A DNA stretch of 32,000 nucleotides from an archaeon GW2011_AR10 (lineage in GTDB: Archaea; Iainarchaeota; Iainarchaeia; Iainarchaeales; GW2011-AR10): contig CP010424.1 of NCBI GenBank assembly GCA_000830275.1, positions 360,001 to 392,000 on the forward strand, given 5' to 3'. Positions 4,765 through 26,375 of this stretch are shown one piece after another. Positions within the stretch are counted from its first letter, which is position 1. The number at the start of each line of letters is the position of its first letter. The position numbers and the translations under genes are program-made. The notes under the pieces are model-generated. The model worked only from the letters and a program-made list of their open reading frames with translations. It was not told where the DNA came from and made no database searches.

Positions 4765-7700
4765 TTATACATAATGTTCCCAGGGCTCTATTTCTAGCTC
4801 GGAAAGGTTTCGCTTCAGAATTGATTCAATGAAGAGTTTTGCCAGTTGAAGGTTAGTGATCAATGGAACTGAGTGGTCAACTGCAAGCCTTCTTAAGTCA
4901 TAGTTTTTGTCCAAGTCAATCTGCTTTAATGGGTTGGGAACAGAGATAACAAGGTCTAGTTTCTTTTGCCCAAGCAAATCCGATACATTGGGCTTCTTGT
5001 TTTCATGCATTTTGTGAACTAGCTCGACTTTTATGCCATTACTCTGATAAAATAACGCTGTGTGTTCAGTGCCGTAAAGCTTGTAGCCTGCTTTGAAAAG
5101 GCCTTTAACCTCCTCTAGCACCTTATACCTGTTCTCATCTCCTGAAAGGGAAATAAGAATATTTTTTTCAGGCAGTTTAAAGCCCGTTGAAAGCAGGGCC
5201 TTAAGGAAAGCGTCTTCAAGGTCCCTTCCAATGCACGCAACCTCTCCGGTTGAAGCCATTTCAACTCCTGATATTGGGTCAGCGCCCCTCAGCCTTGTGA
5301 ACGAAAACTGTGGTGCCTTAACTCCAACCCTGTCCAGCTCTAGGCTTGAAGAATTAACTGCACTTGTTTTCTCCCCCATAATGGCATTGGTTGCAATTTC
5401 AATGAAATCTGTTCCAATTACCTTTGAAACAAACGGAAAACTCCGGCTTGCGCGAAGATTGCACTCAATTACCCTAACATTATTGTCTTTCGCAATGAAT
5501 TGTATGTTGAAGGGCCCCCTAATAGAAAGCGCCACAGCAATTTTTTCTGCTATCTGCTTCATCTGCCTCATTGTTTCAAGGTATGTTCTCTGGGGCGGCA
5601 AAACCATTGTTGCATCCCCTGAGTGAACGCCAGCATTCTCTATGTGCTCGGTCATGGCCCAGCACAGCAGCTTTCCGTTATCAGCAACTGCATCAATTTC
5701 TGTTTCGCGTGCATTCAAGATAAACTTGCTTATCACAACAGGGTAATCCTTTGAAAGCAGCGTTGCTTCAGAAAGGTAATTCTTTAATTGCTCTGCAGTG
5801 AATGCAACGTTCATTGCCTGCCCTGACAGAACATAAGACGGCCTGACCAAAACAGGAAAGCCTGCCTTTTTCGCAAATTTCAGCGCTTCACTTGAAGAGG
5901 TGAGTTCCTTCCACTCCGGCTGGTCAATGCCAAGCTCATCGCAAAGCCTTGAAAACTTATGGCGGTCTTCTGCGCTGTCAATGCTTTTAGCGCTTGTGCC
6001 AAGTATTTTGACTTTTTGCTCTGAAAGCTTAATCGCGAGATTGTTGGGAATCTGGCCGCCGGTTGAAAGTATGACGCCGACAGGATTTTCTTTTTCATAA
6101 ATGTCCAAAACTGTTTCAAGCGATAGCTCATCAAAGTAAAGCTTGTCGCATATGTCATAATCCGTTGAAACGGTTTCAGGGTTATAGTTCACCATTATAG
6201 TGCTATAGCCGAGTCTCTTAAGCTGTTTGACGCATGAAACGCTGCACCAGTCGAACTCGACGCTGCTGCCAATCCTGTAAGCGCCGGAACCCAAAACCAT
6301 AACTTGTTTTACTCCGGTGAACTCTGCATCGTCGTTTAAACCGTCGTAAGTGAGATAAAGATAATTTGTTTTTGCAGGGTACTCTGCTGCAAGCGTATCA
6401 ATCTGCTTAACAAAAGGCCGAATTCCAAAGCCTTTCCTGTACTCCCTCACAGTAAGCTCTGATTTTTCCCCAACAAGCATTGCAATCTGCTTGTCTGAAA
6501 ACCCAAGCTTTTTGGCATTCAGCAGCTGCTCTTTTGTAATCCTGTCCAGCTTTTTCCCTTTCAGTTCATTTGAGGTTCTTACAACATTCTGCAGCTTGAA
6601 AAGAAACCACTTATCTATGTGAGTTAAACCGTGTATTTTTTCAACAGAATCGCCTCTGATAAGCGAGTTCATTACTGCAAAAACCCTTTCATCTGTAGGA
6701 TACTTTAACTCTTGGCTGAGCTTTTGAAAATATATCTTGTTTCCGACCAACCCATACATTCCTATCTGAAGCATTCTCACTGCCTTCTGCATCGCTTCCT
6801 CAAAGCATCTGCCAATAGCCATTACTTCTCCAACGCTCTTCATTTCACTCCCGATTTTTTTTGAAACGTTCCTGAACTTCTTCAAATCCCACCTTGGAAT
6901 TTTTACGACAATGTAGTCAAGGGCAGGCTCAAAGCAGGACTTTGTCACTTTTGTAATAGAGTTTTCAAGGTCAAGCAAGCTGTAACCCAATCCCAATTTT
7001 GCAGCAACGAATGCAAGCGGATACCCTGTTGCCTTTGAAGCAAGAGCTGAACTCCTTGAAAGCCTGGCATTTACTTCAATAATCCTGTAATCTTCAGAAG
7101 CAGGGTTCAAAGCAAACTGTATATTGCATTCTCCCACAATCCTGAGGTGCCTTATGACTTTGATTGAAATTTCCCTCAGCTTGTGGTATTCCCGATTTGA
7201 AAGAGTCTGCGAGGGCGCCACAACAATGCTTTCGCCGGTGTGAATTCCCATCGGGTCAAAGTTCTCCATGTTGCATACCGTAATGCAGTTGTCAAACCCA
7301 TCTCTCACCACCTCATACTCTATTTCCTTCCAGCCCTCCAAGTATTCCTCTACAAGTATTTGCGGGGACAAAGAAAAAACCCTTCCAGTCAAAGCCTTAA
7401 GTTCTTCAATGTTTTTGACAACCCCTGAACCAGCCCCTCCTAAAGAAAACCCTGCCCTCACAATTAAAGGAAACCCGATTTTGCGCGCAGCTTTCAGTGC
7501 TTCCCTCTGTGAAATGCAAGGAATGCTTTTAGGCACTTTCAATCCAATTGAAGTCAGCTCCTTGTTGAAAAGCGCCCTGTCCTCTGTTTTTTCAATGGCG
7601 TCAACCTGCGTTCCCAAAACAGCCACATTATGTTTTTTAAGCACGCCATTTTTTTCAAGCTCGAGGCCAGCATTCAATGCAGTCTGGCCGCCGAAGGAAA

Positions 7701-7962: not shown

Positions 7963-9041
7963 TTCAATTCCTCCAAGAATTCGTCAAACAAAAAACCGCA
8001 ATCTGTTGGGCCTGGGGTTGCTTCAGGATGGAACTGAACTGACATGAACGGCTTGCGCTTATGGCGAATTCCCTCATTGCTCCCGTCATTTGCATTCCTG
8101 AACCATTCCATCCAGCCGGCTGGCAGGCTTTTTGCATCAACCGCATAACCATGGTTTTGGCTTGTGATAAAGCACTGCTTTGTTCCAACAAGCTCTGCCG
8201 GCTGGTTTTGGCTTCGATGACCATATTTCAGCTTATAAGTGTTGGCGCCTGCAGCCAATGCAAGAACCTGGTTTCCAAGGCAGATTCCAAAGGTTGGAAT
8301 TTCTTGCTCCAATGCTTTGGCAGCATTCCTGATTGTTGCCTGCACTGTTTTTGGGTCGCCGGGACCGTTGCTGATCAATAAACCGTCAAAGTCAAATTCT
8401 CCGTCGAATGGATTAAAATCCCAAGGCACCCTGATTACCTGAACCTTTCTTTCAAGCAGGCACCTTACAATGTTGCCTTTTGCCCCGCAGTCAACAAGCA
8501 TTACTTTTTTCCCTTTCTCGCCATAGACAACAGGCGAAGAAACGCTTACCTCCTGCACCAAATTCCTTTTGTTTGGGTCAACAATAGCTAAGTCTTGGCC
8601 ACTGAAGACGATTTTTCCAAGCATTACGCCTTTTTCCCTCAGCTTCTGGGTTAATGCCCTCGTATCAATTCCAGTTAATGCAGGAATGCTTTCAGATTTA
8701 AGCCATTCAGCTAGCGAGGAAACAGAATTCCAATGATTGTGCTGAAAAGAGTAATTGCTTACAATCAGCCCGGAAACCTGGATTTTGTCTGACTCGAAGA
8801 ACTCAAGCAGCTGATTGGTTTTATTTTTTGGAGGAACCCCATAGTTTCCAATTAATGGATAGGAGAGGACCAAAATTTGGCCCCTGTAGCTTGGGTCACT
8901 AAGGCTTTCAGGGTAACCAACCATTCCAGTATTGAAAACCACTTCACCGCTAATGCTTTTCTCAGCACCAAAAGACAAACCTTCAAAAACAGAGCCGTCC
9001 TCAAGAATTAGTTCAGCTTTTTTAGGCAAAAATTTGGGCAT
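7959..9041 (-). CDS. carA: carbamoyl-phosphate synthase small (glutaminase) subunit
   Basis: GVPPKN..., the class I GATase motif FGICLGNQVLALA (catalytic Cys), GHRSQNQP and SVQFHPEA. It lies immediately upstream of carB and is translationally coupled to it. Confidence 0.93.
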   Translation of the reverse strand: MPKFLPKKAELILEDGSVFEGLSFGAEKSISGEVVFNTGMVGYPESLSDPSYRGQILVLSYPLIGNYGVPPKNKTNQLLEFFESDKIQVSGLIVSNYSFQHNHWNSVSSLAEWLKSESIPALTGIDTRALTQKLREKGVMLGKIVFSGQDLAIVDPNKRNLVQEVSVSSPVVYGEKGKKVMLVDCGAKGNIVRCLLERKVQVIRVPWDFNPFDGEFDFDGLLISNGPGDPKTVQATIRNAAKALEQEIPTFGICLGNQVLALAAGANTYKLKYGHRSQNQPAELVGTKQCFITSQNHGYAVDAKSLPAGWMEWFRNANDGSNEGIRHKRKPFMSVQFHPEATPGPTDCGFLFDEFLEELK

Positions 9042-9114
9042 TCTAAAAAAAAATTTATGGAAGGGACAGCTTTTAAAGTTATTCCCGCAGGATAAAAACC
9101 ACGCACAGTATTGT

Positions 9115-10899
9115 TCAGATATTAAAGTGTTGTTTTTCCTCGCTAACTTTTTCCTTCAAGTATTTTTTGTACTCTTCGGTTAAGTTGTTGATGTCAATAG
9201 TGTTCCCTGACTGAAGGTAGTAAGCGATATTTTTCAGGAAAACATTGCTGCCAATGACGTGGTACATAATAACATAGTCAACTCCTGCATTGTAAAGCTC
9301 GGATGCCTCATGAAAGTAATGTGCGGACCCAAAAACCACTATGCCGGGGTTAACGCTTTTAGCGTACTTCACAACTGAAACAGCTGCTTTTGTGTCAGGC
9401 ATTGAAATAATCAAAAGCTTTGCCTGCTGCAGATTTGCCTTGCGCAAAATTTCCCTGTTGTCGGCAGAACCATAAATTGAGTTAATGCCATTCTTGATTG
9501 AGTTGAGTATTACATCATAGTTGTGGTCAATCACAACCAAAGGATACTCGCGGAAAAGCGCCTTCGCAATGTTGAACCCTACAACCCCTGCACCAACAAT
9601 AACAACATGTTCTTTCATGTTCTTTGGAACATTCTCAAGCTGGTTTACTTTTTGGTAGAACCTCCTGTTTTCCTTTAAGTTTTTGGTAAAGCGCGCAGAA
9701 GACCTATTCAGCCTCTCATAAATTGGCTCGCTGTGGTGCATAAGGTAAGGAGTAAGGGCCATTGAAAGCGCAATAACAATTATGACAAGCGAGTGCAAGC
9801 CAGGAGTCCTGTTGAGTATGTCCCTCCCCAAGTCAGCAATTATGAAGGAGAACTCTGAAACCTGCGCCAAAGCAAGGGCGACAAAGACGCTGATTCTCCC
9901 TCCGTAGCCGGAAAAAAGAGTGATTAAATAGAACAGAACCGGTTTGAACACGAACACCACAAACAGCACAAACAGCAGAAGCGTTAATGGGAAATAGGCA
10001 AAGCCCAGGTTTATCTGCATTCCGAGGGTCACAAAAAAGATTGTTGCAAAGAAATCCCGCAGTGCCTTGATCCTGTGGAAGACCTCAAGGTTGTAGGGAA
10101 GGTTTGAAAGCGCCAAGCCGGCAATGAACGCGGCAAGCGGGATTGAAAAATTCAGGGCAAACGCAATAAGAATGAAAACAAAGAGGCTTGTCACGGAAGC
10201 CAAGAACAGCAGCTCGTCTGAACGCACAGAATAACTGAACACTGCAGGGTAGACGTGCCTGTTCAAGAGGTATGCGAACACCAACAGAAAAGCGCCTACT
10301 GCCAGCACTGGCGCAAATACATTGAAGGAAAAAAGCTGCTCCAAGTTAGCGAGAAATGGCAGGGCAATAATCACAAACGCGTCTTGGACAAGAAGAAACC
10401 CTACCAGCAGCCGGCCGTGAAGGGTTGTTATCTGGTGCGAGTCGGAAAGAATTTTCACAACAACCAGTGTGCTGCTGAATGCAAGTATTAGGCCAAGATA
10501 AATTGACTGGGTGAAATCAAACAGGTTGAACATGAATGTTCCAACAAAAACAACAAGAATTGTCAGCAGCACTTGAAGCGTTCCACCAACCACTACAACT
10601 TTGCCCAAATCAGCAAGCTTGGAGAAATCTGATTCAACTCCAACCCCAAAAAGCAGGAAAGCCACTCCAAGCGTTGAAAGAATCAATGCATCTTCTAGGT
10701 CAGTGATGCCCAACGGAATGCCTGCAAATTCCAAGCCCATAGAGCCAAGCCCTATCGGGCCAATTATTATGCCAGCAAGAATGTAGGCTATTAGCGCCGG
10801 CTGCTTTAAGTGCTTTGCCAGAAAGCTCAGCAGAGTTGCGCTTACCACAATCAAGCCAATTTCAAAGAGCAGCGAAAATTCAATCAAGGGCGCAGCCAT
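9115..10899 (-). CDS. CPA2-family monovalent cation:proton antiporter with a C-terminal TrkA-N/RCK domain (Kef-like)
   Basis: The first ~390 aa form about 12 hydrophobic helices typical of Na+/H+-exchanger-family proteins. A Rossmann motif (VVIVGAGVVGFNIAKAL) follows. Confidence 0.8.
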   Translation of the reverse strand: MAAPLIEFSLLFEIGLIVVSATLLSFLAKHLKQPALIAYILAGIIIGPIGLGSMGLEFAGIPLGITDLEDALILSTLGVAFLLFGVGVESDFSKLADLGKVVVVGGTLQVLLTILVVFVGTFMFNLFDFTQSIYLGLILAFSSTLVVVKILSDSHQITTLHGRLLVGFLLVQDAFVIIALPFLANLEQLFSFNVFAPVLAVGAFLLVFAYLLNRHVYPAVFSYSVRSDELLFLASVTSLFVFILIAFALNFSIPLAAFIAGLALSNLPYNLEVFHRIKALRDFFATIFFVTLGMQINLGFAYFPLTLLLFVLFVVFVFKPVLFYLITLFSGYGGRISVFVALALAQVSEFSFIIADLGRDILNRTPGLHSLVIIVIALSMALTPYLMHHSEPIYERLNRSSARFTKNLKENRRFYQKVNQLENVPKNMKEHVVIVGAGVVGFNIAKALFREYPLVVIDHNYDVILNSIKNGINSIYGSADNREILRKANLQQAKLLIISMPDTKAAVSVVKYAKSVNPGIVVFGSAHYFHEASELYNAGVDYVIMYHVIGSNVFLKNIAYYLQSGNTIDINNLTEEYKKYLKEKVSEEKQHFNI

Positions 10900-13174: not shown

Positions 13175-13813
13175 CTATGTGGAGCCCGGAACAAAGAATG
13201 GAAGAGACGGCAAAAACACGTAAACAACTGCAATGACCACTGCCCAGATAACGAAAATAAGAAGGTTCGTGAGAATTGGCGATTTTCCGGCGTTGGCAAT
13301 GAGCTGGTAAACCAAGTAAAGCGCGAACAGGAAAACAATCAGTGTTACAAGGCTAAGCGCAGCAACTCCGGCAACAACAATGGATTCGCTCTGCACCTGC
13401 AGGGAATCCAAGGCAAAAGCAATAGCCAGCGGGTCAGGATTGCTTTGAACCTCAGCAAAGGCAGTGAAAAAGTTTGGAACCAGGAACAACACCAAAACAA
13501 ATGAAACTATTTGAAGGAAAAACCTTGCAAGGAAAATGAAGCTGTAGCCAGTCATTAGGCCAGAAAACCTTCCCTTTGCGCTGCCGCCCTTGAATGAAGC
13601 AAGAAGGAAAAAAATCACTGCAACTGAAACAATCCAGCCTATTAGCTCTGAAGCAATGCTCAAACCGAACCCCGCAAAGTTGACCTCAAACCCGTAAAAA
13701 ATGCTTATTCCCAGCGTGAAAATGAACGGCAACAGGAAGAAACCAAAAGCCAGCAGCAGGTTAGCATTGTCAAGGGAGTTCTTTGCCATTCCCTTCACAA
13801 AGTCAATCGGCAC
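13175..13813 (-). CDS. hypothetical polytopic membrane protein (about 5-6 TM helices)
   Basis: Hydrophobic helices run through the whole protein. The listed start is a GTG at 13813, and an alternative ATG lies at 13789. I recognise no catalytic motif. Confidence 0.55.
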   Translation of the reverse strand: MPIDFVKGMAKNSLDNANLLLAFGFFLLPFIFTLGISIFYGFEVNFAGFGLSIASELIGWIVSVAVIFFLLASFKGGSAKGRFSGLMTGYSFIFLARFFLQIVSFVLVLFLVPNFFTAFAEVQSNPDPLAIAFALDSLQVQSESIVVAGVAALSLVTLIVFLFALYLVYQLIANAGKSPILTNLLIFVIWAVVIAVVYVFLPSLPFFVPGST

Positions 13814-13937: not shown

Positions 13938-14609
13938 ATGCCAAAAAGAGGAGTAAGAGTTGGAGACCCAAGCGTTCCAAGAGCCAGCAGTCGCGCTGGA
14001 AGGGCAAGGCTTTCAAGGGATGCTGGAAAAAAACAAAGAGGGGGGGCAGTTTCTCCTTATGAAGATCTTTCTGCAAGATTAAGTGGAAGGAAAATTACTG
14101 CGGTAAGTGTTGCTGAAGCAATAAATAGAATGAGGAGCAATCCTCAAAGGAGTTATTGTGGCGTGAAATTGGATTTGTTTACCGTTTGGATGAAATATGA
14201 TAAAGGCGCGCCAAAAGTGCCTGCTTCTGCTTTATCGTTGGTAGGAATCCTAGACAGCCCTCCTGCTTTTCATAAATTCACCAGGGAAACTTATGAAATA
14301 GTTGAGGGAAAAGGAATTTTTTATCATAGGCCAAGGGGAACAAATAGGTGGTTTAAAAAAGAATTCAAACCAGGGAACGTCATTGATATCCCTCCAGGAA
14401 CAGAACACAAAGTTGTTTCAAAAGACAGAACAAACGGCACACTAGTGAAACTTACATTTAATCCGCCACTCGCACACAGAACATATAAAGGAACAGAATC
14501 AATTTATCGGGATGAGTACATGGTTGAAAAAAAGGAAACAAAAAAAACTATTAAATCTGTTGGCGGGAAAAAATTAAGAAAGAAAGTAGTTCAAAAAAGC
14601 GGATATTGA
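13938..14609 (+). CDS. hypothetical protein with an Arg/Lys-rich N-terminal tail and a cupin-like C-terminal domain
   Basis: GNVIDIPPGTEHKVVS fits cupin motif 2, G(X)5PXG(X)2H(X)3N, except for the last residue. Upstream, GKGIFYHRP is a partial motif 1. The N-terminal ~45 aa are basic and low-complexity. Confidence 0.5.
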   Translation: MPKRGVRVGDPSVPRASSRAGRARLSRDAGKKQRGGAVSPYEDLSARLSGRKITAVSVAEAINRMRSNPQRSYCGVKLDLFTVWMKYDKGAPKVPASALSLVGILDSPPAFHKFTRETYEIVEGKGIFYHRPRGTNRWFKKEFKPGNVIDIPPGTEHKVVSKDRTNGTLVKLTFNPPLAHRTYKGTESIYRDEYMVEKKETKKTIKSVGGKKLRKKVVQKSGY

Positions 14610-17633: not shown

Positions 17634-18512
17634 TTAAGGCAAAAGCTTGATTTCTTTTGTGCGATTGAAAATGTGCTTCATTATGATTTCTGCAAATTTT
17701 TTGCCGAAAAACTTTGGCATGAGACCGGGAGAAAAGTTTATTTCAAGTATCAGCCACCCTTTACTTGATTTGATGAAGTCAACCGAGCTTATGTCCATTC
17801 CCATAATCTTTGCCGCTTTAAGCGCGATTTCCTTTATTTCATCCGGAATCCTGATTAGAATTGCCCTTGCCCCCCTTGAAACGTTTGCACGCCACTCGCC
17901 TTTTTTGGCAATCCTCTTCACAGGGTAAACGTTGTCGCCAATTACATAGCATCGAATGTCATCGCCTTTGTCAATGAATTCCTGCGTTGCAACAAACTCT
18001 TTGAAAACCTGCATTGTGTCAAGCAAAGGCACTAAATCTTGTTCTTCTTGCACAAGCATCACTCCCCTGCCGCCGAAACCTGAAAGAAGCTTTACAACAA
18101 GCGGGTAACCGACTGTTCTAGAAATTTTTGTTGTAGGCTGCGGTGAAACGCTGAGAGAAGTGGTTGGAACAGGCAGCTTTGACTTGCACAGCGTCTGCAC
18201 AGTGTAATACTTGTGGTTAACTATCTGGAATGCTTCGCTGCTTGTAGGCAAGTAAACCCCTGAGCTCTCCAAAATGTCGAGCACGCATTCGCCGAAAAGA
18301 AAGTCTTCGCTGAAGAGCCTTGCATAGCAGGCATCAAATTTTGTGAGGTCAGTGTTCTTGAAGAACAACTTGTTTTCCCCGCCAACGCACTCAACCCTTA
18401 TGCCATCCAATGGAATGGATAATACAGTTGAAAAGTATTTTTTTGCCTCAGAGATAAGGTGCTTGCTTACTTCTTTTCTGGCCTTGCTGCCTGAAATCAG
18501 CAGGAACTTCAC
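17634..18512 (-). CDS. RimK/LysX-family ATP-grasp ligase (catalytic motifs intact)
   Basis: GYPLVVKLLSGFGGRGVMLV (Lys plus Gly-rich loop), QEFI..DIRCYV, EWRANVSRGA, and SSVDF...LILEINFSPG (Mg-binding D/E/N). There is a 4-nt overlap with the upstream paralogue. Confidence 0.8.
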   Translation of the reverse strand: MKFLLISGSKARKEVSKHLISEAKKYFSTVLSIPLDGIRVECVGGENKLFFKNTDLTKFDACYARLFSEDFLFGECVLDILESSGVYLPTSSEAFQIVNHKYYTVQTLCKSKLPVPTTSLSVSPQPTTKISRTVGYPLVVKLLSGFGGRGVMLVQEEQDLVPLLDTMQVFKEFVATQEFIDKGDDIRCYVIGDNVYPVKRIAKKGEWRANVSRGARAILIRIPDEIKEIALKAAKIMGMDISSVDFIKSSKGWLILEINFSPGLMPKFFGKKFAEIIMKHIFNRTKEIKLLP

Positions 18513-19357
18513 TTGAGCACCTCAAAGTAATGCTCTGCAACGCTGTCATTGAGGTCTTTTCCCATAGCAGTCCCGAACCTGTCAAAGTTTACCTCAGGTG
18601 AAACGCTTAAAACCGTGTCCCCGATTAATTTGACTGTTGCAATGTCAGCCCCAACTGTTTTAGCTGCCTTAATCGCAGTCTCAGTGCTTTTGCTGCTTAA
18701 GCTCACAGGCGTTAGCTTTGAGTGGTGCTCTGCCTTTTCGCGGTCCCACTTCCTTCTAACGCCAAAAACGTTTTTCCCTATGACAACACAGTAGTCTAAA
18801 TCACCTTGAAGGTATTCCTGAACCATAATGGCATCAACTTTTGAGCGGAAGCTCTTGGCAAAAGACTCAAAGCTCCGCTGGTCTTCAATTACTATGCTCT
18901 GCGCTTTTGCTGCCCCAACAAAAGTCTTGAACATAACCGGAAAATTAAAAGACTTAACAGCCTGCTCTAAAAGATTCGCGTTAGCAACAATAAATGTTTT
19001 CTGTGTCTTGATGTTTCTGGAATTAAGGACAACGTTCATGAACGGCTTGTTTGAGGTAACATAATAGGATTCCGGCTTGAGCTGGCAGTAAATGCCCTTA
19101 TTGCTTAACTCGGTTAGAAATGGCTCCACAAACTGCGTGAACTGCTGCCCGACATTCAAAAACACTCCATTGTACTTGGAGAAGTTTATTGTTCCAACCA
19201 AAATTTTTGTCTGGTTCCCTTTGGTGAGAAGACTGACTCTGCCCACATAAATGAACCCAACGTGCTCAAAGCCCCTCTTTTCAAAGGACTTCTTGAGTTC
19301 AGGCAATGCTGCTCCCTTCTTATCCGAAATTATCACTACATCCACGGCAGCCACCAA
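18509..19357 (-). CDS. divergent ATP-grasp-like paralogue with eroded catalytic motifs
   Basis: It is the same length and collinear with its neighbours (FPVMFK, VQEYL, PEVNFD). It lacks the Gly-rich loop (TFVGAAKAQS), the DxR Arg (LDYCVV), the N..GG motif, and the first Mg-binding Asp (ATVKLIG). It starts at TTG or GTG, 5 nt after the upstream stop. Confidence 0.6.
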   Translation of the reverse strand: MVAAVDVVIISDKKGAALPELKKSFEKRGFEHVGFIYVGRVSLLTKGNQTKILVGTINFSKYNGVFLNVGQQFTQFVEPFLTELSNKGIYCQLKPESYYVTSNKPFMNVVLNSRNIKTQKTFIVANANLLEQAVKSFNFPVMFKTFVGAAKAQSIVIEDQRSFESFAKSFRSKVDAIMVQEYLQGDLDYCVVIGKNVFGVRRKWDREKAEHHSKLTPVSLSSKSTETAIKAAKTVGADIATVKLIGDTVLSVSPEVNFDRFGTAMGKDLNDSVAEHYFEVLK

Positions 19358-19362
19358 AAAAG

Positions 19363-20889
19363 CTAATTTTTATTTTCAGTTTCCTTTTGCTCTGGCTTCC
19401 ACACCCTTACAGGCCTATTGGATTTGCCTAAAGCCTTGAATACGTGTTCTGAGAGAAGCTGGTTAATTGCTTCGTTCTGTCTAAGAATCTTTTTAAGGTA
19501 TCTTTCAAAAGACTTGCTGAGCTCCCTGTAAAGAGACACATCAGCGTAAACAAGCCCCTCGCTTATTCGCCAGTAAGCAGATGTTCCTTGCTTGGCGAAC
19601 ACAATATAGCCGCGCTTTTTGTCGATTTCACTCATTGCCTCTTCAAGAAGGTTATAATCAATAAGGTAAACTCCGGCCGTTGACTTGCTTGGGTCCATTA
19701 TTATGAGCTCGCTCCCTTCAACTCCAACGCACAAAACATAATGGCCTTTTGACTTTGAATGCCGGAAGAGCGCAGGCTTATGGAACCATAATAGCACAAG
19801 GGCACCTTCACTGAGCCAGCTCTTCATTTCCTCCTTGAGGTCAGATATTTCATCATATTTTACCAGCACGCCCTTCACATTAGAGTTTGTGACATTCTTT
19901 ACTGCCTCGATTAGTTTCCTTGGCCCTGTTCCTCCAGGGGTTTTTGTTTTTGCAAGCTCGCCGATTTTTTCCTGCGACACGTCGTACTCGAAGAAAGAAA
20001 GCATCATTGCAGCGGAAGCCGGCCCGCAATGCGCTGGAATCTGCGCAACAAAATTGGAGCGCAGCGCTTCAAGCCTTGTTATGTCCTGTTTTGTCCTCTT
20101 AATATAAATTTTTTGTTTTACGAGTTTTGCGTGAGGGTAAAGCAGGTTATAGCCGTTAGGCAGCCTAATGAGAACCCCCTGCGGGGTAAACCCAATAACT
20201 TCCCCGGCTTCATCCCCCAGCATTATGTGCTGCCCGGGCTTAAGAAGGTTTTTCTCAACGTAGGCGCCCATGAAGAAATTTGAGAGCGGGTCCTTGAAAA
20301 TATTGTAAATGAGTGCAACGCTTAAAAGGACGAAACCATAAATTACCGCAACAAGCAGGTTATCAATGAAGGGAACAGTTAAGCCTACAAAGCTGAAGGA
20401 AACACTGAACAATACAAGGAAAAGAAAAATTTTTACAATCGTGAAAGTGTTGTTAATGAATTCAACGGAAATTCCAACTTCATACAGGTACTCTGACAGG
20501 CCAATCCTTAAGAGCGCGCGCTTCAAGATGTCCACAATAAGGTTGATTAAAATGAAGCCCAAAAACAGGAGCAGGAGAATTATTATGATTGCAGGGATCG
20601 AGTTGAGAAGGCTCTGGATTATTATTTTGGCAGAGTTTACTTCAAGGAAATTCAAAGCAATAATAATTGAGAGCACGATTATGAAGAGCTCAAAGAGCCT
20701 GCTGATTGATTTGATTACGCGGTTTGGCTCAATGTTAAAGCGGTTGTTTAAGGCTTCTATTATTGTTGCAGCAAGCTTTGCTATTATGACTCCTGCAATG
20801 AGTGTTGCTGCTGCCAGCACTACCTGTTCAAAAGCAGGGCTTCCAACCGATATAGTGTAATCGTTCAGGTTAATTAGGCCTTCAAACAT
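19363..20889 (-). CDS. fusion of an MscS-like membrane/beta-domain with a papain-like (C39-type) Cys-His domain
   Basis: aa 1-200 contain about 5 TM helices. aa 200-262, LSNFFMG...KPGQHIMLGDEAGEVIGFTPQGVLIRLPNGYNLLYPHAKL, resemble the MscS TM3 and beta-domain. aa 283-400 carry Q283, C288 in QIPAHCGPASAAMML (codon 20026-20028), H383 in KGHYVLCVGV, and D399 in IIMDP, which is the order of a C39-like catalytic set. Confidence 0.65.
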   Translation of the reverse strand: MFEGLINLNDYTISVGSPAFEQVVLAAATLIAGVIIAKLAATIIEALNNRFNIEPNRVIKSISRLFELFIIVLSIIIALNFLEVNSAKIIIQSLLNSIPAIIIILLLLFLGFILINLIVDILKRALLRIGLSEYLYEVGISVEFINNTFTIVKIFLFLVLFSVSFSFVGLTVPFIDNLLVAVIYGFVLLSVALIYNIFKDPLSNFFMGAYVEKNLLKPGQHIMLGDEAGEVIGFTPQGVLIRLPNGYNLLYPHAKLVKQKIYIKRTKQDITRLEALRSNFVAQIPAHCGPASAAMMLSFFEYDVSQEKIGELAKTKTPGGTGPRKLIEAVKNVTNSNVKGVLVKYDEISDLKEEMKSWLSEGALVLLWFHKPALFRHSKSKGHYVLCVGVEGSELIIMDPSKSTAGVYLIDYNLLEEAMSEIDKKRGYIVFAKQGTSAYWRISEGLVYADVSLYRELSKSFERYLKKILRQNEAINQLLSEHVFKALGKSNRPVRVWKPEQKETENKN

Positions 20890-20976
20890 CTTACCTATCT
20901 AAGAAAACACATTTAACCTTTTTATACGTTACTTTATTCAATAAAGTTTCAATAAAAGGCTTCTTGGCGAGGAAAA

Positions 20977-21780
20977 ATGAAACTCCTGATTTTAAGCGTT
21001 GAAGAGCAGCCTGAAATTGAGAGGCTGAAAGAGGAAGCAAAAAAATCAGGGCATGGCGTAGAAGTTAAGAGCCCGGAAAAATCCACTGAAAGGGTTCTGC
21101 CATCGTTCACTCACGTGTTGGTTAGGGCAGTTAAAGGAGCCGGGGAAGCAGCAAAAGAAATTGCAATGAAAGCCCGTTCCCTTGGCTTAAGGGTAGTGGA
21201 TGAAAGGCTGGCAACAGGCAAGGGCTTCAACAAGGCAGCAATATACTCTATTCTCAAAAAAAATGGGTTCAGCGTACCGGAAACCATTGCGTTTGAGGAA
21301 AAAAACTTTCCAGCCATCAGAAAATTCCAGGGAAAAGAAGTGATAATAAAGGACGTTAAGGGAAAAAGAGGGCAGGACGTCTTCAAGGTGAATAAAACCG
21401 AACTAGAAGTATTTTACCAGCGGTTAGACAAATCAAAGAAGTATTTGGCGCAAGAATTTTTAAGAATAGACAAAGAACTCCGCGTGCTGGTTGTGGGCAC
21501 AAAAGTTGTCGGCGGTTTCTCTAAGCAGTCAAGCAACTGGAAAAAAAACATTGCTGCCGGAGCAACCCCGGTTAAAGAGCAACTAAGCGTTGAAATAAAA
21601 AATGCTTCAGTTAAAGCTGCTTCCATAACCAAAACAGAAATAGCCGGAATTGACCTCGCGTTGGTTGGCGGAAAAATTTTTGTGCTGGAAGTGAACAGGG
21701 CACCGGGCTTCATCGGGTTTGAGAAAGCAACAGGAAAAAACGCTGCAAAAGAAATAATACAATATGTTGCGTCAAAATAG
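20977..21780 (+). CDS. RimK-family ATP-grasp ligase (catalytic motifs intact)
   Basis: GKEVIIKDVKGKRGQDVF, AQEFL..ELRVLVVG, NWKKNIAAGA, and GIDLAL...FVLEVNRAPGFIGFEKATGKNAAKEII, a RimK-like C-terminal block. Confidence 0.78.
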   Translation: MKLLILSVEEQPEIERLKEEAKKSGHGVEVKSPEKSTERVLPSFTHVLVRAVKGAGEAAKEIAMKARSLGLRVVDERLATGKGFNKAAIYSILKKNGFSVPETIAFEEKNFPAIRKFQGKEVIIKDVKGKRGQDVFKVNKTELEVFYQRLDKSKKYLAQEFLRIDKELRVLVVGTKVVGGFSKQSSNWKKNIAAGATPVKEQLSVEIKNASVKAASITKTEIAGIDLALVGGKIFVLEVNRAPGFIGFEKATGKNAAKEIIQYVASK

Positions 21781-21791
21781 CATTACAGTGT

Positions 21792-22970
21792 TTACCCGCG
21801 AATAAGCTTCATCAGCACGCGCTTGCTCAGCCTGATTTCCTTTAAGGTTATTGATTCCTGCGCGGAATGGGGGTTGCTTCCTCCAGGCCCAAAGCCAACC
21901 GTTGGAATGCCAAGCCTTGCAATGAACCTTCCGTCAGTGGCACCTAGCTCTCCCGCAAGCTCTGCTTTCCTCCCTATAATGCTCTTAACGCATTCAGCTA
22001 TCTCTTTCACAAACCCATTGTTTTTTGGAACAAAGTAACCATTGCTTCCAGTCATTGAAATAATGCCTTTCAACCCGTGCTTTTTCAAAAGCCTTATTGC
22101 AAAACTTTTGAACCCGCTCATAACGGCCTTGATGTTTTCTTCCGGCAATGCCCGGATGTCAAAACCAATTTCAGCACTGCCAGGAATGGCATTCGTTTTA
22201 TGGCCAACCTTCAAAATAGTGATGTTGAACCTTCCCCAAATTTTCTTCTTAGGCGCAAAACTTGGAGCAGCAACAACTGAAGCTGCTTTCTCTCGCTCTT
22301 TCTCGTATTCCTTCAAGTCGTTTAGGAACGGAACCAATTTATGCACAATATTTGGGTTTCTGAAAGCATACGCTGCATGCCCTGCTGTGCCCTTGAACTC
22401 AATGAAGCCCATTACTATTCCGCTGCAGCCAATGCCAATGTGGCTTAGCTTTGAATCCATTACAAGGCAGCCATGCGCACCAAGTTTTTTTGGATGCCTT
22501 TCTGAAAGAAACTTTATCCCGTACTCAGAGCCAACCTCTTCATCGCATCCTACTACAATTTTAACGTTTTTGCCGCACTCCTTGCCGCGGAGGTCACGCA
22601 ATGCACCCAAACAGACAGCAATAGCTGCCTTGTCATCTGCTGCCCCAAGACCAGACAGTTTTGTTCCTTTCCTTAGAAGTTCGTTTGGTTTCCTTGTCCA
22701 GTCACTGCCTGCAGAAACAACATCAAAGTGAGTTACAACAAGCAAATCCTTTTTCCGCTTGTTGTCAAAGTAAATTAGCACGTTCGGCCTCTGCTTTTTG
22801 TCCTGAGCCTTGGCCGACACGATTTCAGTGCGGAACCCAAGAGCGCGGGCCTCTTTTGCGATGAAGTCGGCGCACGCAGCATAGTTGGCTTTTGTTTCAG
22901 AATCCGTGTTGAACGCAACAAGCTTCCTTAACAGGTTAACCTCATACTCCAAGCTGTCCTTTGGCGGCAT
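21792..22970 (-). CDS. M20-family metallohydrolase (ArgE/DapE/LysK/carboxypeptidase-type deacylase)
   Basis: The M20 metal-ligand motifs occur in the usual order: VVTHFDVV, GLGAADDKAAIA and GCDEEVGSEYG. It converges on the ATP-grasp gene with an 11-nt gap. Confidence 0.8.
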   Translation of the reverse strand: MPPKDSLEYEVNLLRKLVAFNTDSETKANYAACADFIAKEARALGFRTEIVSAKAQDKKQRPNVLIYFDNKRKKDLLVVTHFDVVSAGSDWTRKPNELLRKGTKLSGLGAADDKAAIAVCLGALRDLRGKECGKNVKIVVGCDEEVGSEYGIKFLSERHPKKLGAHGCLVMDSKLSHIGIGCSGIVMGFIEFKGTAGHAAYAFRNPNIVHKLVPFLNDLKEYEKEREKAASVVAAPSFAPKKKIWGRFNITILKVGHKTNAIPGSAEIGFDIRALPEENIKAVMSGFKSFAIRLLKKHGLKGIISMTGSNGYFVPKNNGFVKEIAECVKSIIGRKAELAGELGATDGRFIARLGIPTVGFGPGGSNPHSAQESITLKEIRLSKRVLMKLIRG

Positions 22971-24694: not shown

Positions 24695-24752
24695 ATTGCT
24701 GCAAGGCAATCAAATTTTAAAGAATGGCTTTCTATTTATTAGTGGGGGTTTC

Positions 24753-26375
24753 ATGGAGCAGTTTTCAAAGGAAGAGCAGGAAATTTTAAGGCCGTTTTTT
24801 ACGAACCTTGATAAGCCGGTTTTTGTGCTCAAAAACCTTCCAGAGGTTGTGAAAGGCGCCTTGTTTTCTCGCTACAGCCGCTCGGACAAAAGCCTCAGGA
24901 GAGTGCTCTTGGAAGAGTTCATTAAAGACGAAAAAATGGGCTTCAAGGAAATTGTTGGGCACCAGGCTGAAAGCGGCGTAAGCCAAGTTGTGGCAATCCG
25001 AAAAGCAGAGGAATTCTATGACAGGGTTTTGGTTGGGTTTGGAGATGACTCGGTTGCAGAGCTTGGAGGAGCGCACGTTGCAGTTGAAGATGTTAGCAAC
25101 ATTACAAGCGTTATTCTTGAGGATTCTCGCATTGGGTTAAGCCCGCTGGAAAAAAGCACGCGCTACGTGTGGTATGACAAGAAGGTTAATGGAAAATACG
25201 CTTACTATTCCGATGAAAAAATAATGCAGTCAAGGCACGCCGATTTGTTCACTGAAACATGCGACATGCTGTTTGATTCCTATGCTGAACTGGTGGAACC
25301 AACCAAAAAGTACTTGAATGAACAGTTCCCGCAGGAAGAAAATGTGAGTGACAGGGCATACAATTCAACAATCAAGGCAAAAACCTGTGATGTTCTCAGG
25401 GTTTTTTTGCCGGCAGCAACAACCACAAACTTAGGCTTGTTCGGCAACGGCAGGAGCTTTGAATACCTTCTCACAAAAATGTATTCAAATGAATTAACTG
25501 AACCGCAGAATGTTGCTGCTTCAATGCATGCAGAGCTGCAAAAAGTAATTCCCTCTTTTGTGAAAAGGGCAAGGGATCAATTTGGAATGCCGACAATTGA
25601 ATTCATGCACGAAACAAGGAAAGGCATGAGGCAATTGGCGGGAAAAATTTTTGAAGGAACAAAACCACAAAAAGAAAAAGAAGTTACTTTGGTGAGCTTT
25701 GATTCAAAAGCTGAGGAAAAAGTCGTTGCAGCTGCACTTTACCCTTTCACTGACCTTTCTCACAAGCAGGTGCAGGAAAAAGTGCGGAAAATGAATGCTA
25801 CTGAAAGAAAGCAGGTGCTGAAAGAATACCAGTTCAGGCGCCAGAACAGAAGGCATAAGCCTTACCGCGGCTTTGAGCATGCTTACTACGAGTTTGATTT
25901 GCTTGGAAACTATGGCATTTATCGTGACTTGCACAGGCACAGAATGCTTACACAGCAAAGGCAACCACTAACAGTAAAGCACGGGTTTAATATTCCAACA
26001 GAATTCAAGGCACTGGGCGTTGAAGAAAAATACGTTGACGCAATGAAGGAAGTTGCTTCCGCGTTTAACGCAATTGCAAAGGATTTGCCGAAAGAAGCGC
26101 AGTACGTTGTTCCGTTTGGTTACCGCATCAGGTGGAATGTTTGCCTGAATCTTCGCGAATTATACCATTTGGTTGAACTGCGCTCAACAATTCAAGGGCA
26201 TCCGGATTACAGGAGAATTGCCTTCAAAATGTTTGATGAAGTGAGAAAAGTGCAGCCTGCACTTGTTGAGTGGATGAAATTTGTTGTAACAAAGGATATT
26301 GGCTTGGAGCGACTTGAAGCGGAAAAAGAGTACGATAAAAGAATTGAGGAAGTAAAGAAAAAGTATGGCGGCTAA
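24753..26375 (+). CDS. thyX: flavin-dependent thymidylate synthase, double-length (two ThyX-like domains in one chain)
   Basis: The C-terminal half has FEHAYYEFDL...YRDLHRHRMLT (RHR signature) and LNLRELYHLVELRS. The N-terminal half is collinear with ThyX (ALFSRYSRS..., HVAVEDVSN..., SPLEKSTRY, LRVFLPAATTTN). The ATG at 24753 is preceded by GGGGG, and the listed TTG at 24696 is unlikely. Confidence 0.8.
   Translation: MEQFSKEEQEILRPFFTNLDKPVFVLKNLPEVVKGALFSRYSRSDKSLRRVLLEEFIKDEKMGFKEIVGHQAESGVSQVVAIRKAEEFYDRVLVGFGDDSVAELGGAHVAVEDVSNITSVILEDSRIGLSPLEKSTRYVWYDKKVNGKYAYYSDEKIMQSRHADLFTETCDMLFDSYAELVEPTKKYLNEQFPQEENVSDRAYNSTIKAKTCDVLRVFLPAATTTNLGLFGNGRSFEYLLTKMYSNELTEPQNVAASMHAELQKVIPSFVKRARDQFGMPTIEFMHETRKGMRQLAGKIFEGTKPQKEKEVTLVSFDSKAEEKVVAAALYPFTDLSHKQVQEKVRKMNATERKQVLKEYQFRRQNRRHKPYRGFEHAYYEFDLLGNYGIYRDLHRHRMLTQQRQPLTVKHGFNIPTEFKALGVEEKYVDAMKEVASAFNAIAKDLPKEAQYVVPFGYRIRWNVCLNLRELYHLVELRSTIQGHPDYRRIAFKMFDEVRKVQPALVEWMKFVVTKDIGLERLEAEKEYDKRIEEVKKKYGG

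Follow-up and report, generated by a model that had tools for sequence, protein, structure and literature searches.

A papain-like Cys-His-Asp domain joined to an MscS-type membrane module and encoded next to RimK-type ligases in DPANN archaea

Described relatives of the two modules and of the operon

MscS channels are textbook osmotic safety valves, and the domains known to have been added to them are sensor or ligand-binding domains (the periplasmic domain of MscK, the cyclic nucleotide monophosphate (cNMP)-binding domain of bCNG, EF-hands). We describe here a gene of the archaeon GW2011_AR10 (Iainarchaeota) that encodes an MscS-type membrane module and a papain-like domain with a predicted Cys-His-Asp triad in a single open reading frame (ORF), next to genes for RimK-type ATP-grasp ligases. 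It lies in a stretch of 32,000 nucleotides of contig CP010424.1 (positions 360,001 to 392,000), called the window below, to which positions refer unless another locus is named. No published description of an MscS-peptidase architecture, or of any enzyme-bearing MscS relative, was found in the literature searched.

The fusion protein can be aligned with Escherichia coli MscS (2VV5, 6RLD) over transmembrane (TM) helices TM1-TM2 and over TM3 with the following beta-domain. In TcMscS of Trypanosoma cruzi (9BGQ), as in the fusion, the channel part ends after the beta-domain, and the alpha/beta domain, the side portals and the C-terminal barrel are lacking; although TcMscS consists of TM2-TM3 and the beta-domain only, it forms a mechanosensitive heptamer in which permeation takes place entirely through the axial pore (PMC12334622). 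Heptameric MscS entries of just 171-174 aa are present in the Protein Data Bank (PDB). Compared with these channels, the fusion has an extra pair of TM helices (five TM in all), a bulky TM3a and a 250-aa, predicted catalytic domain behind the beta-domain.

The papain-like domain can be compared with Alr0975 (NsPCS; 2BTW, 2BU3), a primitive phytochelatin synthase (PCS), and with the pseudomurein endoisopeptidase PeiR (8Z4H), which have the same fold and the same Gln-Cys-His-Asp order. According to the depositors' titles, the Alr0975 structures show the acyl-enzyme intermediate formed with glutathione, which is itself a gamma-glutamyl peptide. Identity to these two proteins is just 17-19%, and the domain of the fusion differs from them in being tethered to the membrane and in carrying a conserved C-terminal extension of its own. 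The spacing between Gln and Cys is x4 in the fusion, compared with x5 in papain and PCS. A cysteine peptidase is likewise fused to a membrane transporter, on the cytoplasmic side, in the PCAT/AMS ABC exporters (ComA, LahT, PCAT1); there, however, it is N-terminal to an ABC pump, whereas in the fusion it is C-terminal to a passive MscS module, whose partners are RimK ligases and near whose gene none for a double-glycine (GG) leader peptide was found.

The operon has a described counterpart in bacteria. In Pseudomonas aeruginosa, tolerance of hypo-osmotic stress is controlled by the rlo operon, for which a possible role in glutamate/polyglutamate homeostasis has been raised by the authors who described it (PMC11957051). 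Its products are a RimK-like ATP-grasp protein, a 7TM protein whose periplasmic transglutaminase (papain-superfamily) domain is inactive, and a retropepsin that is secreted and cuts stretches of eight or more Glu. In the rim system, RimB trims the Glu tails made by RimK (PMC11957051). RloABC and RimABK are comparable to the fusion locus in that a RimK-like ATP-grasp protein occurs with a polytopic papain-superfamily membrane protein and with Glu-specific peptidases, and the hypo-osmotic phenotype of rlo corresponds to the stress that MscS channels answer. In contrast to RloB, the fusion protein is MscS-type and not 7TM, its papain-like domain is predicted to be cytoplasmic, and its catalytic residues are intact; a RimB-like gene was found in one fusion context only. 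RloABC is taken here, by analogy, as a functional analogue whose membrane parts are not homologous to those of the fusion.

The fusion protein and its family

The fusion ORF is complete. Its ends had been placed exactly in the earlier note on this DNA; its strand had to be corrected to minus, the plus-strand reading being riddled with stops and therefore rejected. The strings quoted in that note (LSNFFMG...KPGQHIML..., QIPAHCGPASAAMML, KGHYVLCVGV and IIMDP) were all found, and the residue numbers that it gave for the putative catalytic positions, Q283, C288, H383 and D399, are correct. From N- to C-terminus the protein consists of five TM helices, the MscS TM3/beta-domain, a basic linker, the papain-like domain and a conserved extension of 65 aa. 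Hydropathy gives five TM segments, in agreement with the number estimated earlier. The last ~100 aa, previously read as a helical, charged tail, do carry basic charge, but they are not a mere tail: residues 410-435 belong to the papain-like fold (strand at 427-433), and 436-500 contain invariant residues. The extension includes a helix (459-473) and a short strand (494-497), and low complexity is confined to its last ~10 aa.

The same architecture was recovered from many independent sources. A word-indexed search gave 47 clusters at 90% identity, almost all of them full length and named 'C39 family peptidase' or 'small-conductance mechanosensitive channel' at their source. When 1.84 billion representatives were searched exhaustively with a profile, ~50 clusters (50% identity) proved to be full length and 63 proteins scored E < 1e-30, with ordinary MscS proteins ranked below the fusion family. 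When one genome per GTDB species was scanned, the fusion was found at 28 loci, all in archaeal metagenome-assembled or single-amplified genomes. An assembly chimera of two genes, against which the earlier note had warned, was rejected on these counts (28 independent genomes as well as the clusters at both identity levels). The labelled loci belong to Iainarchaeota/Diapherotrites, Micrarchaeota, Nanohaloarchaea (Nanohaloarchaeota), Woesearchaeota and Aenigmatarchaeota, several others being labelled 'archaeon' alone; fusion carriers with a lineage label are almost all DPANN. Contig CAZPUM010000005.1 (loci L003 and L032) carries the fusion and is labelled 'uncultured Methanosarcinales', possibly by an error of binning or labelling.

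Conservation was examined in an alignment of 31 sequences that are 32-65% identical to the window protein. The two residues on which the earlier prediction hinged, Cys288 and His383, are invariant, and so are Gln283 and Asp399. In the MscS part, G219, G229 and P252 of the beta-domain are invariant and N204 (in TM3b) and N253 nearly so; where MscS has 'IPN', the window protein has a degenerate YPH. Many family members end in E/K-rich C-terminal tails. Scanned one by one against Pfam, all 31 members match Peptidase_C39_2 and 30 match Peptidase_C39, while PF00924 is matched by 26, PF05552 by 16 and Phytochelatin by nine. In conclusion, we regard it as almost certain that the MscS-peptidase architecture and its conservation in this family are real.

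The MscS half was detected in several ways. In the window protein, PF05552 (MS_channel_1st_1) matches aa 90-132 with 23.4 bits (cut-off 22); the PF00924 beta-domain model, which matches most of the family, gives no match at E <= 0.1 to the window protein alone. A single-sequence search of the PDB returned only noise (a lectin at E 1.2), so that the family profile was needed. With this profile, E. coli MscS (2VV5) was recovered at E 1.9e-10 in two collinear stretches, TM1-TM2, aligned to MscS 26-98, and TM3 with the beta-domain, in which profile positions 179-258 were aligned to MscS 95-175. In TM3a, whose residues are bulkier than those of MscS at the aligned Gly positions, the kink is kept as K-D-P where MscS has Q-G, and N117 of MscS is kept as N204. 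The AlphaFold (AF2) model of the full-length protein has a pLDDT of 80.3 and a pTM of 0.46, and the relative orientation of its domains is unreliable. Foldseek, run with this model, returned the MscS structures 6VYK (3e-6), 7ONJ and 2VV5 as well as YnaI, MSL1 and MscK; their TM-scores are low because of the unreliable inter-domain geometry of the monomer model. The TM3/beta-domain pattern that had been noticed from the sequence alone was thus recovered both by the family profile and by structure comparison. The distribution of Lys and Arg over the five TM segments fits an N-out/C-in topology, which agrees with the always-cytoplasmic position of the MscS beta-domain and supports a predicted cytoplasmic location of the papain-like domain.

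The alpha/beta domain and the C-terminal beta-barrel, which form the portal cage of MscS, are absent; the beta-domain is followed by the linker and the papain-like domain. It had been proposed that the papain-like domain replaced the alpha/beta domain. However, the closest non-fusion relatives (P0108, P0111 and P0127, 176-277 aa) already end a few residues past the IPN motif of the beta-domain, and a TM3b motif, FKD..NF, is common to the fusion and to free-standing short MscS relatives. The peptidase was thus appended to an MscS that already had no cage and did not take the place of one, the MscS module of the fusion being of the short, cage-less PF05552-type subgroup; from these sequences, the alpha/beta domain was probably never present in the fusion lineage. 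At locus L004, a separate ORF (5351-6241, minus strand, 292-296 aa) adjoins TrkH/TrkA and lies upstream of the fusion gene at a distance of 1.8 kb; its product, which has a weak match to the fusion protein (E 2.6e-6), is probably a free-standing short MscS paralogue.

In the papain-like half of the window protein, Peptidase_C39_2 (PF13529) matches aa 284-400 with 45.8 bits (cut-off 24; E 1.2e-11) and Peptidase_C39 (PF03412) scores 31.5 bits (cut-off 22), while Phytochelatin (PF05023), at 15.5 bits, stays under its threshold of 24.9; the nine members that match this last model do so at E <= 0.01, the best at 1.2e-5. The family profile matched Alr0975 in the PDB at 3e-5 over profile positions 261-431, with weak matches to ComA (0.28) and PeiR. 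Foldseek returned PeiR, Alr0975, PCAT1, ComA, LahT and a CdiA-CT toxin with the full-length model. The AF2 model of aa 262-508 alone has a pTM of 0.80, and its top matches are acyl-enzyme structures of Alr0975 (1.7e-7, TMq 0.53, ~205-215 columns), followed by PeiR (rmsd 2.7 A over 159 columns), papain-like toxins and a 'C39-like' protein of Bacillus anthracis; the amide-forming papain-like enzymes CtaG, CcbD and AziU2-U3 are also among them. The compact peptidase domains of ComA, LahT and PCAT1 superpose at TMt 0.67-0.79 (0.72-0.78 with the domain-only model). Profile and structure searches thus recover the clan-CA fold that had been read from the Q/C/H/D order, and the modelling and Foldseek comparison proposed with that reading recovers both folds, MscS and papain-like. 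The domain is closer to Peptidase_C39_2 and to primitive phytochelatin synthase than to bacteriocin-processing C39; since neither an ABC partner nor a gene for a GG-leader substrate was found at its loci, it is filed under clan CA as Peptidase_C39_2-like, not as canonical C39.

The ligase operon and its surroundings

A RimK-type ATP-grasp gene is adjacent to the fusion gene at all 28 loci, and at 23 of them fusion, graspA and graspB follow each other in this order, co-directional and with tight or overlapping junctions (Table 1 for the window). The 5-8-nt gap and the 4-nt GTGA overlap in the window, together with the MscS topology, support the earlier proposal that the Cys-His domain would be cytoplasmic, beside the products of co-transcribed ATP-grasp genes.

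Table 1. Features of the fusion gene and of its neighbours in the window (aa numbers refer to the fusion protein)
Feature	Position	Strand	Remarks
Complete fusion ORF, MscS-type membrane module and papain-like Cys-His-Asp domain	19363..20889	-	508 aa; ATG start, TAG stop
Five TM helices, aa 1-198	20296..20889	-	~22-45, 64-84, 98-125, 147-167, 177-198; last helix corresponds to pore helix TM3a
TM3b and MscS beta-domain, aa 199-257	20119..20295	-	KDPLSNFF; N204 corresponds to MscS N117; G219, G229, P252 invariant
Basic linker, aa 258-282	20044..20118	-	Conserved helix (K264, R265, K267, D269, E274); family median net charge +4
Papain-like core (Peptidase_C39_2 / C39 / PCS-like), aa 283-435	19585..20043	-	
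Gln283 codon	20041..20043	-	Predicted oxyanion-hole residue, invariant
Cys288 codon	20026..20028	-	Predicted catalytic nucleophile, invariant
His383 codon	19741..19743	-	Predicted catalytic base, invariant
Asp399 codon	19693..19695	-	Third residue of the predicted triad, invariant
C-terminal extension, aa 436-508	19366..19584	-	Invariant W440, R441, L446, Y454, E462, R470, W497; net charge ~+5
graspA, divergent RimK-like ATP-grasp	18509..19357	-	Starts 5-8 nt past the fusion stop
graspB, canonical RimK-family alpha-L-glutamate ligase	17634..18512	-	GTG start overlaps the graspA stop (GTGA, 4 nt)
graspC, third RimK-family ATP-grasp	20977..21780	+	Catalytic motifs kept; divergent from the fusion gene
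Fusion/graspC intergenic region	20890..20976	n/a	87 bp, AT-rich, shared
M20 (ArgE/DapE-type) deacylase/peptidase	21792..22970	-	Recurrent accessory gene of the locus

The ligases are not equivalent. GraspA is very divergent, and none of its 21 aligned orthologues retains the D/E/N Mg ligands or the R-x-N motif, yet the gene, with orthologues in L006-L033, keeps its position in the operon; its product is probably a non-catalytic pseudo-ligase acting as a partner or adaptor. GraspB and graspC keep both motifs. GraspB scores above the cut-off of TIGR00768 and matches RimK of Pseudomonas and E. coli at 4e-36 to 4e-35 (7qyr, 3.8e-36), compared with 1e-14 to 3e-19 for LysX/ArgX, and its motifs predict an active RimK-type ligase. 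An amino-carrier pathway of the LysX/ArgX type was rejected on two grounds: the match of graspB to RimK exceeds that to LysX by ~17-20 orders of magnitude, and a LysW gene is missing. TTTATA-like and AATAAA elements occur in the intergenic region shared by the fusion gene and graspC, plausibly as a pair of divergent archaeal promoters. At L003/L032, the RimK gene is convergent; before it stands an ORF of 282 aa that has no Pfam match, and an Asp/Glu racemase gene is close by.

The accessory genes of the fusion loci shift in position and identity, and all encode glutamate or amide enzymes. A GCS2-type carboxylate-amine ligase gene lies near the operon at eight loci from two phyla (L008, L009, L013, L016, L021, L023, L027 and L028; for instance at 8567-9559, plus strand, in L027 and at 9098-10168, plus strand, in L028), with none in the window; in Nanohaloarchaea it is found directly 3' of graspB, in the same direction. 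A gene of N-formylglutamate-amidohydrolase (FGase) type stands immediately 3' of graspB in four distinct loci. An AstE/AspA-type gene, an M29 gene and, in the single context of the P0047 contig, a RimB-like retropepsin gene behind RimK were also found.

Two loci, of one lineage, carry the peptidase twice. In L034 (2401-7122) and L035 (900-5621) a full-length fusion gene is accompanied by a 236-aa stand-alone copy of the peptidase, in which the Q...C...H...D context is kept; it lies ~840 nt downstream of the fusion, past a convergent graspC-like gene, and heads a graspA-graspB pair of its own. The obligate partner of the ligases is therefore the peptidase and not the channel. At the same loci, a Kef-type Na_H_Exchanger+TrkA_N gene begins 4 nt past graspB. 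The window likewise contains a Kef-type cation/H+ exchanger gene with a TrkA_N (K+ efflux-type) domain (9115-10899, minus strand), which adjoins CysRS. The Kef-type gene behind the L034 RimK pair and the TrkH/TrkA genes near the L004 fusion may mark a K+/glutamate osmoregulation neighbourhood, or may be mere synteny.

All ORFs of at least 60 aa within 6 kb of the fusion gene were clustered over the 28 loci, and no conserved small ORF, precursor gene, or LysW-like or PCP-like (carrier protein) gene was found; the sole recurrent small 'families' in these intervals are antisense shadows of conserved genes. No ABC gene was found at the 28 loci. An anti-phage defence system was considered and rejected, as PADLOC gave no matches for the fusion, graspA and graspB, and a single marginal one for graspC (a Type II methyltransferase model, E 5.7e-4).

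Elsewhere in the window, a ThyX (Thy1) ORF (24696-26375, plus strand) of 559 aa is about twice the usual ThyX length and has two Thy1-matching stretches, the best at aa 332-521; a counterpart of 539 aa was found at L002, and this long ThyX may be tandem-duplicated or N-terminally extended. Two divergent ORFs of 212 and 223 aa (13175-13813, minus strand, and 13938-14609, plus strand) have no Pfam match at E <= 1e-4.

Possible functions of the fusion

The reading that we favour, and only tentatively, is that a tension-sensing channel module holds a peptidase or transpeptidase for glutamyl peptides and serves the osmotic homeostasis of glutamate. By analogy with the solved MscS channels, the membrane module would assemble as a heptamer, and seven peptidase domains would then sit directly below the point where the axial pore opens into the cytoplasm. 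Glutamyl peptides produced by the RimK-type ligases, be they oligo- or poly-Glu or some small peptide that contains Glu, would be bound by the Cys domain as an acyl-enzyme, and this acyl-enzyme would be hydrolysed, or its glutamyl unit transferred in the manner of PCS; how much glutamate is free and osmotically active, and how much is condensed in glutamyl peptide, would be set in this way. Tension would be sensed by the MscS module, which would vent glutamate or small solutes on down-shock and/or would gate the enzyme, and graspA could serve as non-catalytic adaptor. A bolder version, which we consider unlikely, is a mechano-enzyme in which a heptameric MscS-type tension sensor directly controls the ring of seven cysteine peptidase/transpeptidase domains and so switches between storage and release of glutamate: tension would decide whether RimK-made oligo- or poly-glutamate is stored, or its glutamate released as free osmolyte or vented, which would provide DPANN cells, poor in metabolism as they are, with an 'osmotic capacitor'.

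Several observations weigh against the favoured reading. The glutamyl-peptide substrate is deduced solely from the gene neighbourhood, and to our knowledge bS6, the substrate of bacterial RimK, is not present in archaea. The peptidase core is about neutral (family median net charge ~+1), basic charge being found only in the linker and the extension, whereas the poly-Glu-binding RloA is described as strongly basic. In TM3a, the positions aligned to G101, G104 and G108 of MscS are V, V and F, and L109, which together with L105 forms the hydrophobic gate of MscS, is aligned to F; with such a bulky TM3a, which lacks Gly/Ala packing, the pore may be narrow, different or non-conducting. Finally, the stand-alone paralogue indicates that the enzyme could work unfused to a channel.

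Four other explanations were weighed. The Cys domain might be a transpeptidase or amide synthase (like phytochelatin synthase, BtrH or CtaG) that passes a ligase-made unit to an amine and builds a gamma- or alpha-glutamyl oligomer or polymer, perhaps one that reaches the cell surface by being threaded out through the pore of the MscS module. That Alr0975, including its acyl-enzyme forms, heads both the structural and the PDB-profile matches argues for such chemistry, as do the Phytochelatin matches of nine of the 31 members, the recurrence of GCS2-type, gamma-glutamyl-type ligases at loci of two phyla, the Asp/Glu racemase gene adjoining the RimK gene in L003, and the presence among the Foldseek matches of CtaG, CcbD and AziU2-U3, CtaG and BtrH being enzymes that act with ATP-grasp enzymes (PMC7183216). 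Nevertheless, the matches to CtaG and CcbD are weak (E ~3e-3, rmsd > 12 A), transfer of the CtaG/BtrH type requires a carrier protein, and no conserved small ORF or PCP gene accompanies the operon; moreover, the numerous co-located hydrolases favour turnover over one-way biosynthesis, and polymer export would need an energy source, which is lacking in an MscS pore. We find this explanation improbable. It is rather more doubtful that the MscS module is a non-conducting scaffold, that is, a membrane anchor and heptamerisation platform that concentrates peptidase and ligases. The bulky residues of TM3a at the Gly/Ala packing positions of E. coli MscS would fit, as would the degenerate IPN motif and missing PF00924 match of the window protein and the existence of the stand-alone peptidase. 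However, the hallmarks of MscS (N204, G219, G229, P252 and N253) are invariant or nearly so over sequences that differ as widely as those of the alignment, TM3b shares its FKD..NF motif with free-standing short MscS proteins, and five TM helices with a beta-domain far exceed the needs of an anchor.

The similarity of graspB to genuine RimK, its nearest relative, brings up a protein deglutamylase: RimK-type ligases would put Glu tails on a protein, as RimK does on S6, and the membrane Cys peptidase would trim them, as RimB does in Pseudomonas, so that a regulatory modification is tuned by the state of the membrane. RimB trims the Glu tails of RpsF and binds RimK (PMC11957051), a RimB-like gene stands behind RimK in the P0047 contig, and E/K-rich tails end many family members. 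The 6-kb neighbourhoods of the 28 loci nevertheless offer no conserved candidate substrate gene, and the accessory FGase, AstE/AspA, M20 ArgE/DapE and GCS2 enzymes are small-molecule amide enzymes. With bS6 not known from archaea, a deglutamylase seems quite unlikely. Least probable, and by our estimate very improbable, is an exporter resembling PCAT, in which the C39 domain would cut the double-glycine leader off a ribosomal peptide modified by the ATP-grasp enzymes and the mature peptide would leave through the MscS pore. Peptidase_C39 does score above its Pfam cut-off, the core superposes well on the ComA, LahT and PCAT1 domains, and C39-ABC exporters are the family most common at graspetide ATP-grasp loci (PMC8939145). 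Against it, no conserved small ORF or precursor gene was found within 6 kb at the 28 loci, and the operon junctions are too tight to hold one; the ligases are RimK-type and not graspetide-type, the sequence profile favours Alr0975 (3e-5) over ComA (0.28), and MscS channels are passive.

The soluble domain (aa 262-508), together with C288 and H383 mutants, makes the tentatively favoured glutamyl-peptide reading tractable for testing. The label 'C39 family peptidase', which implies bacteriocin processing, would be corrected. The occurrence of the fusion with a glutamate-ligase operon across five DPANN lineages suggests a direct link between membrane tension and the metabolism of peptides, probably glutamyl peptides. 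If the mechano-enzyme were real, it would be the first mechanosensitive channel joined to a catalytic activity in one polypeptide. If the link is true, it would give RimK-type ligases a role in archaea, and the fusion locus would be an archaeal counterpart, of cleaner architecture, to the still unexplained RloABC system of hypo-osmotic stress in Pseudomonas.

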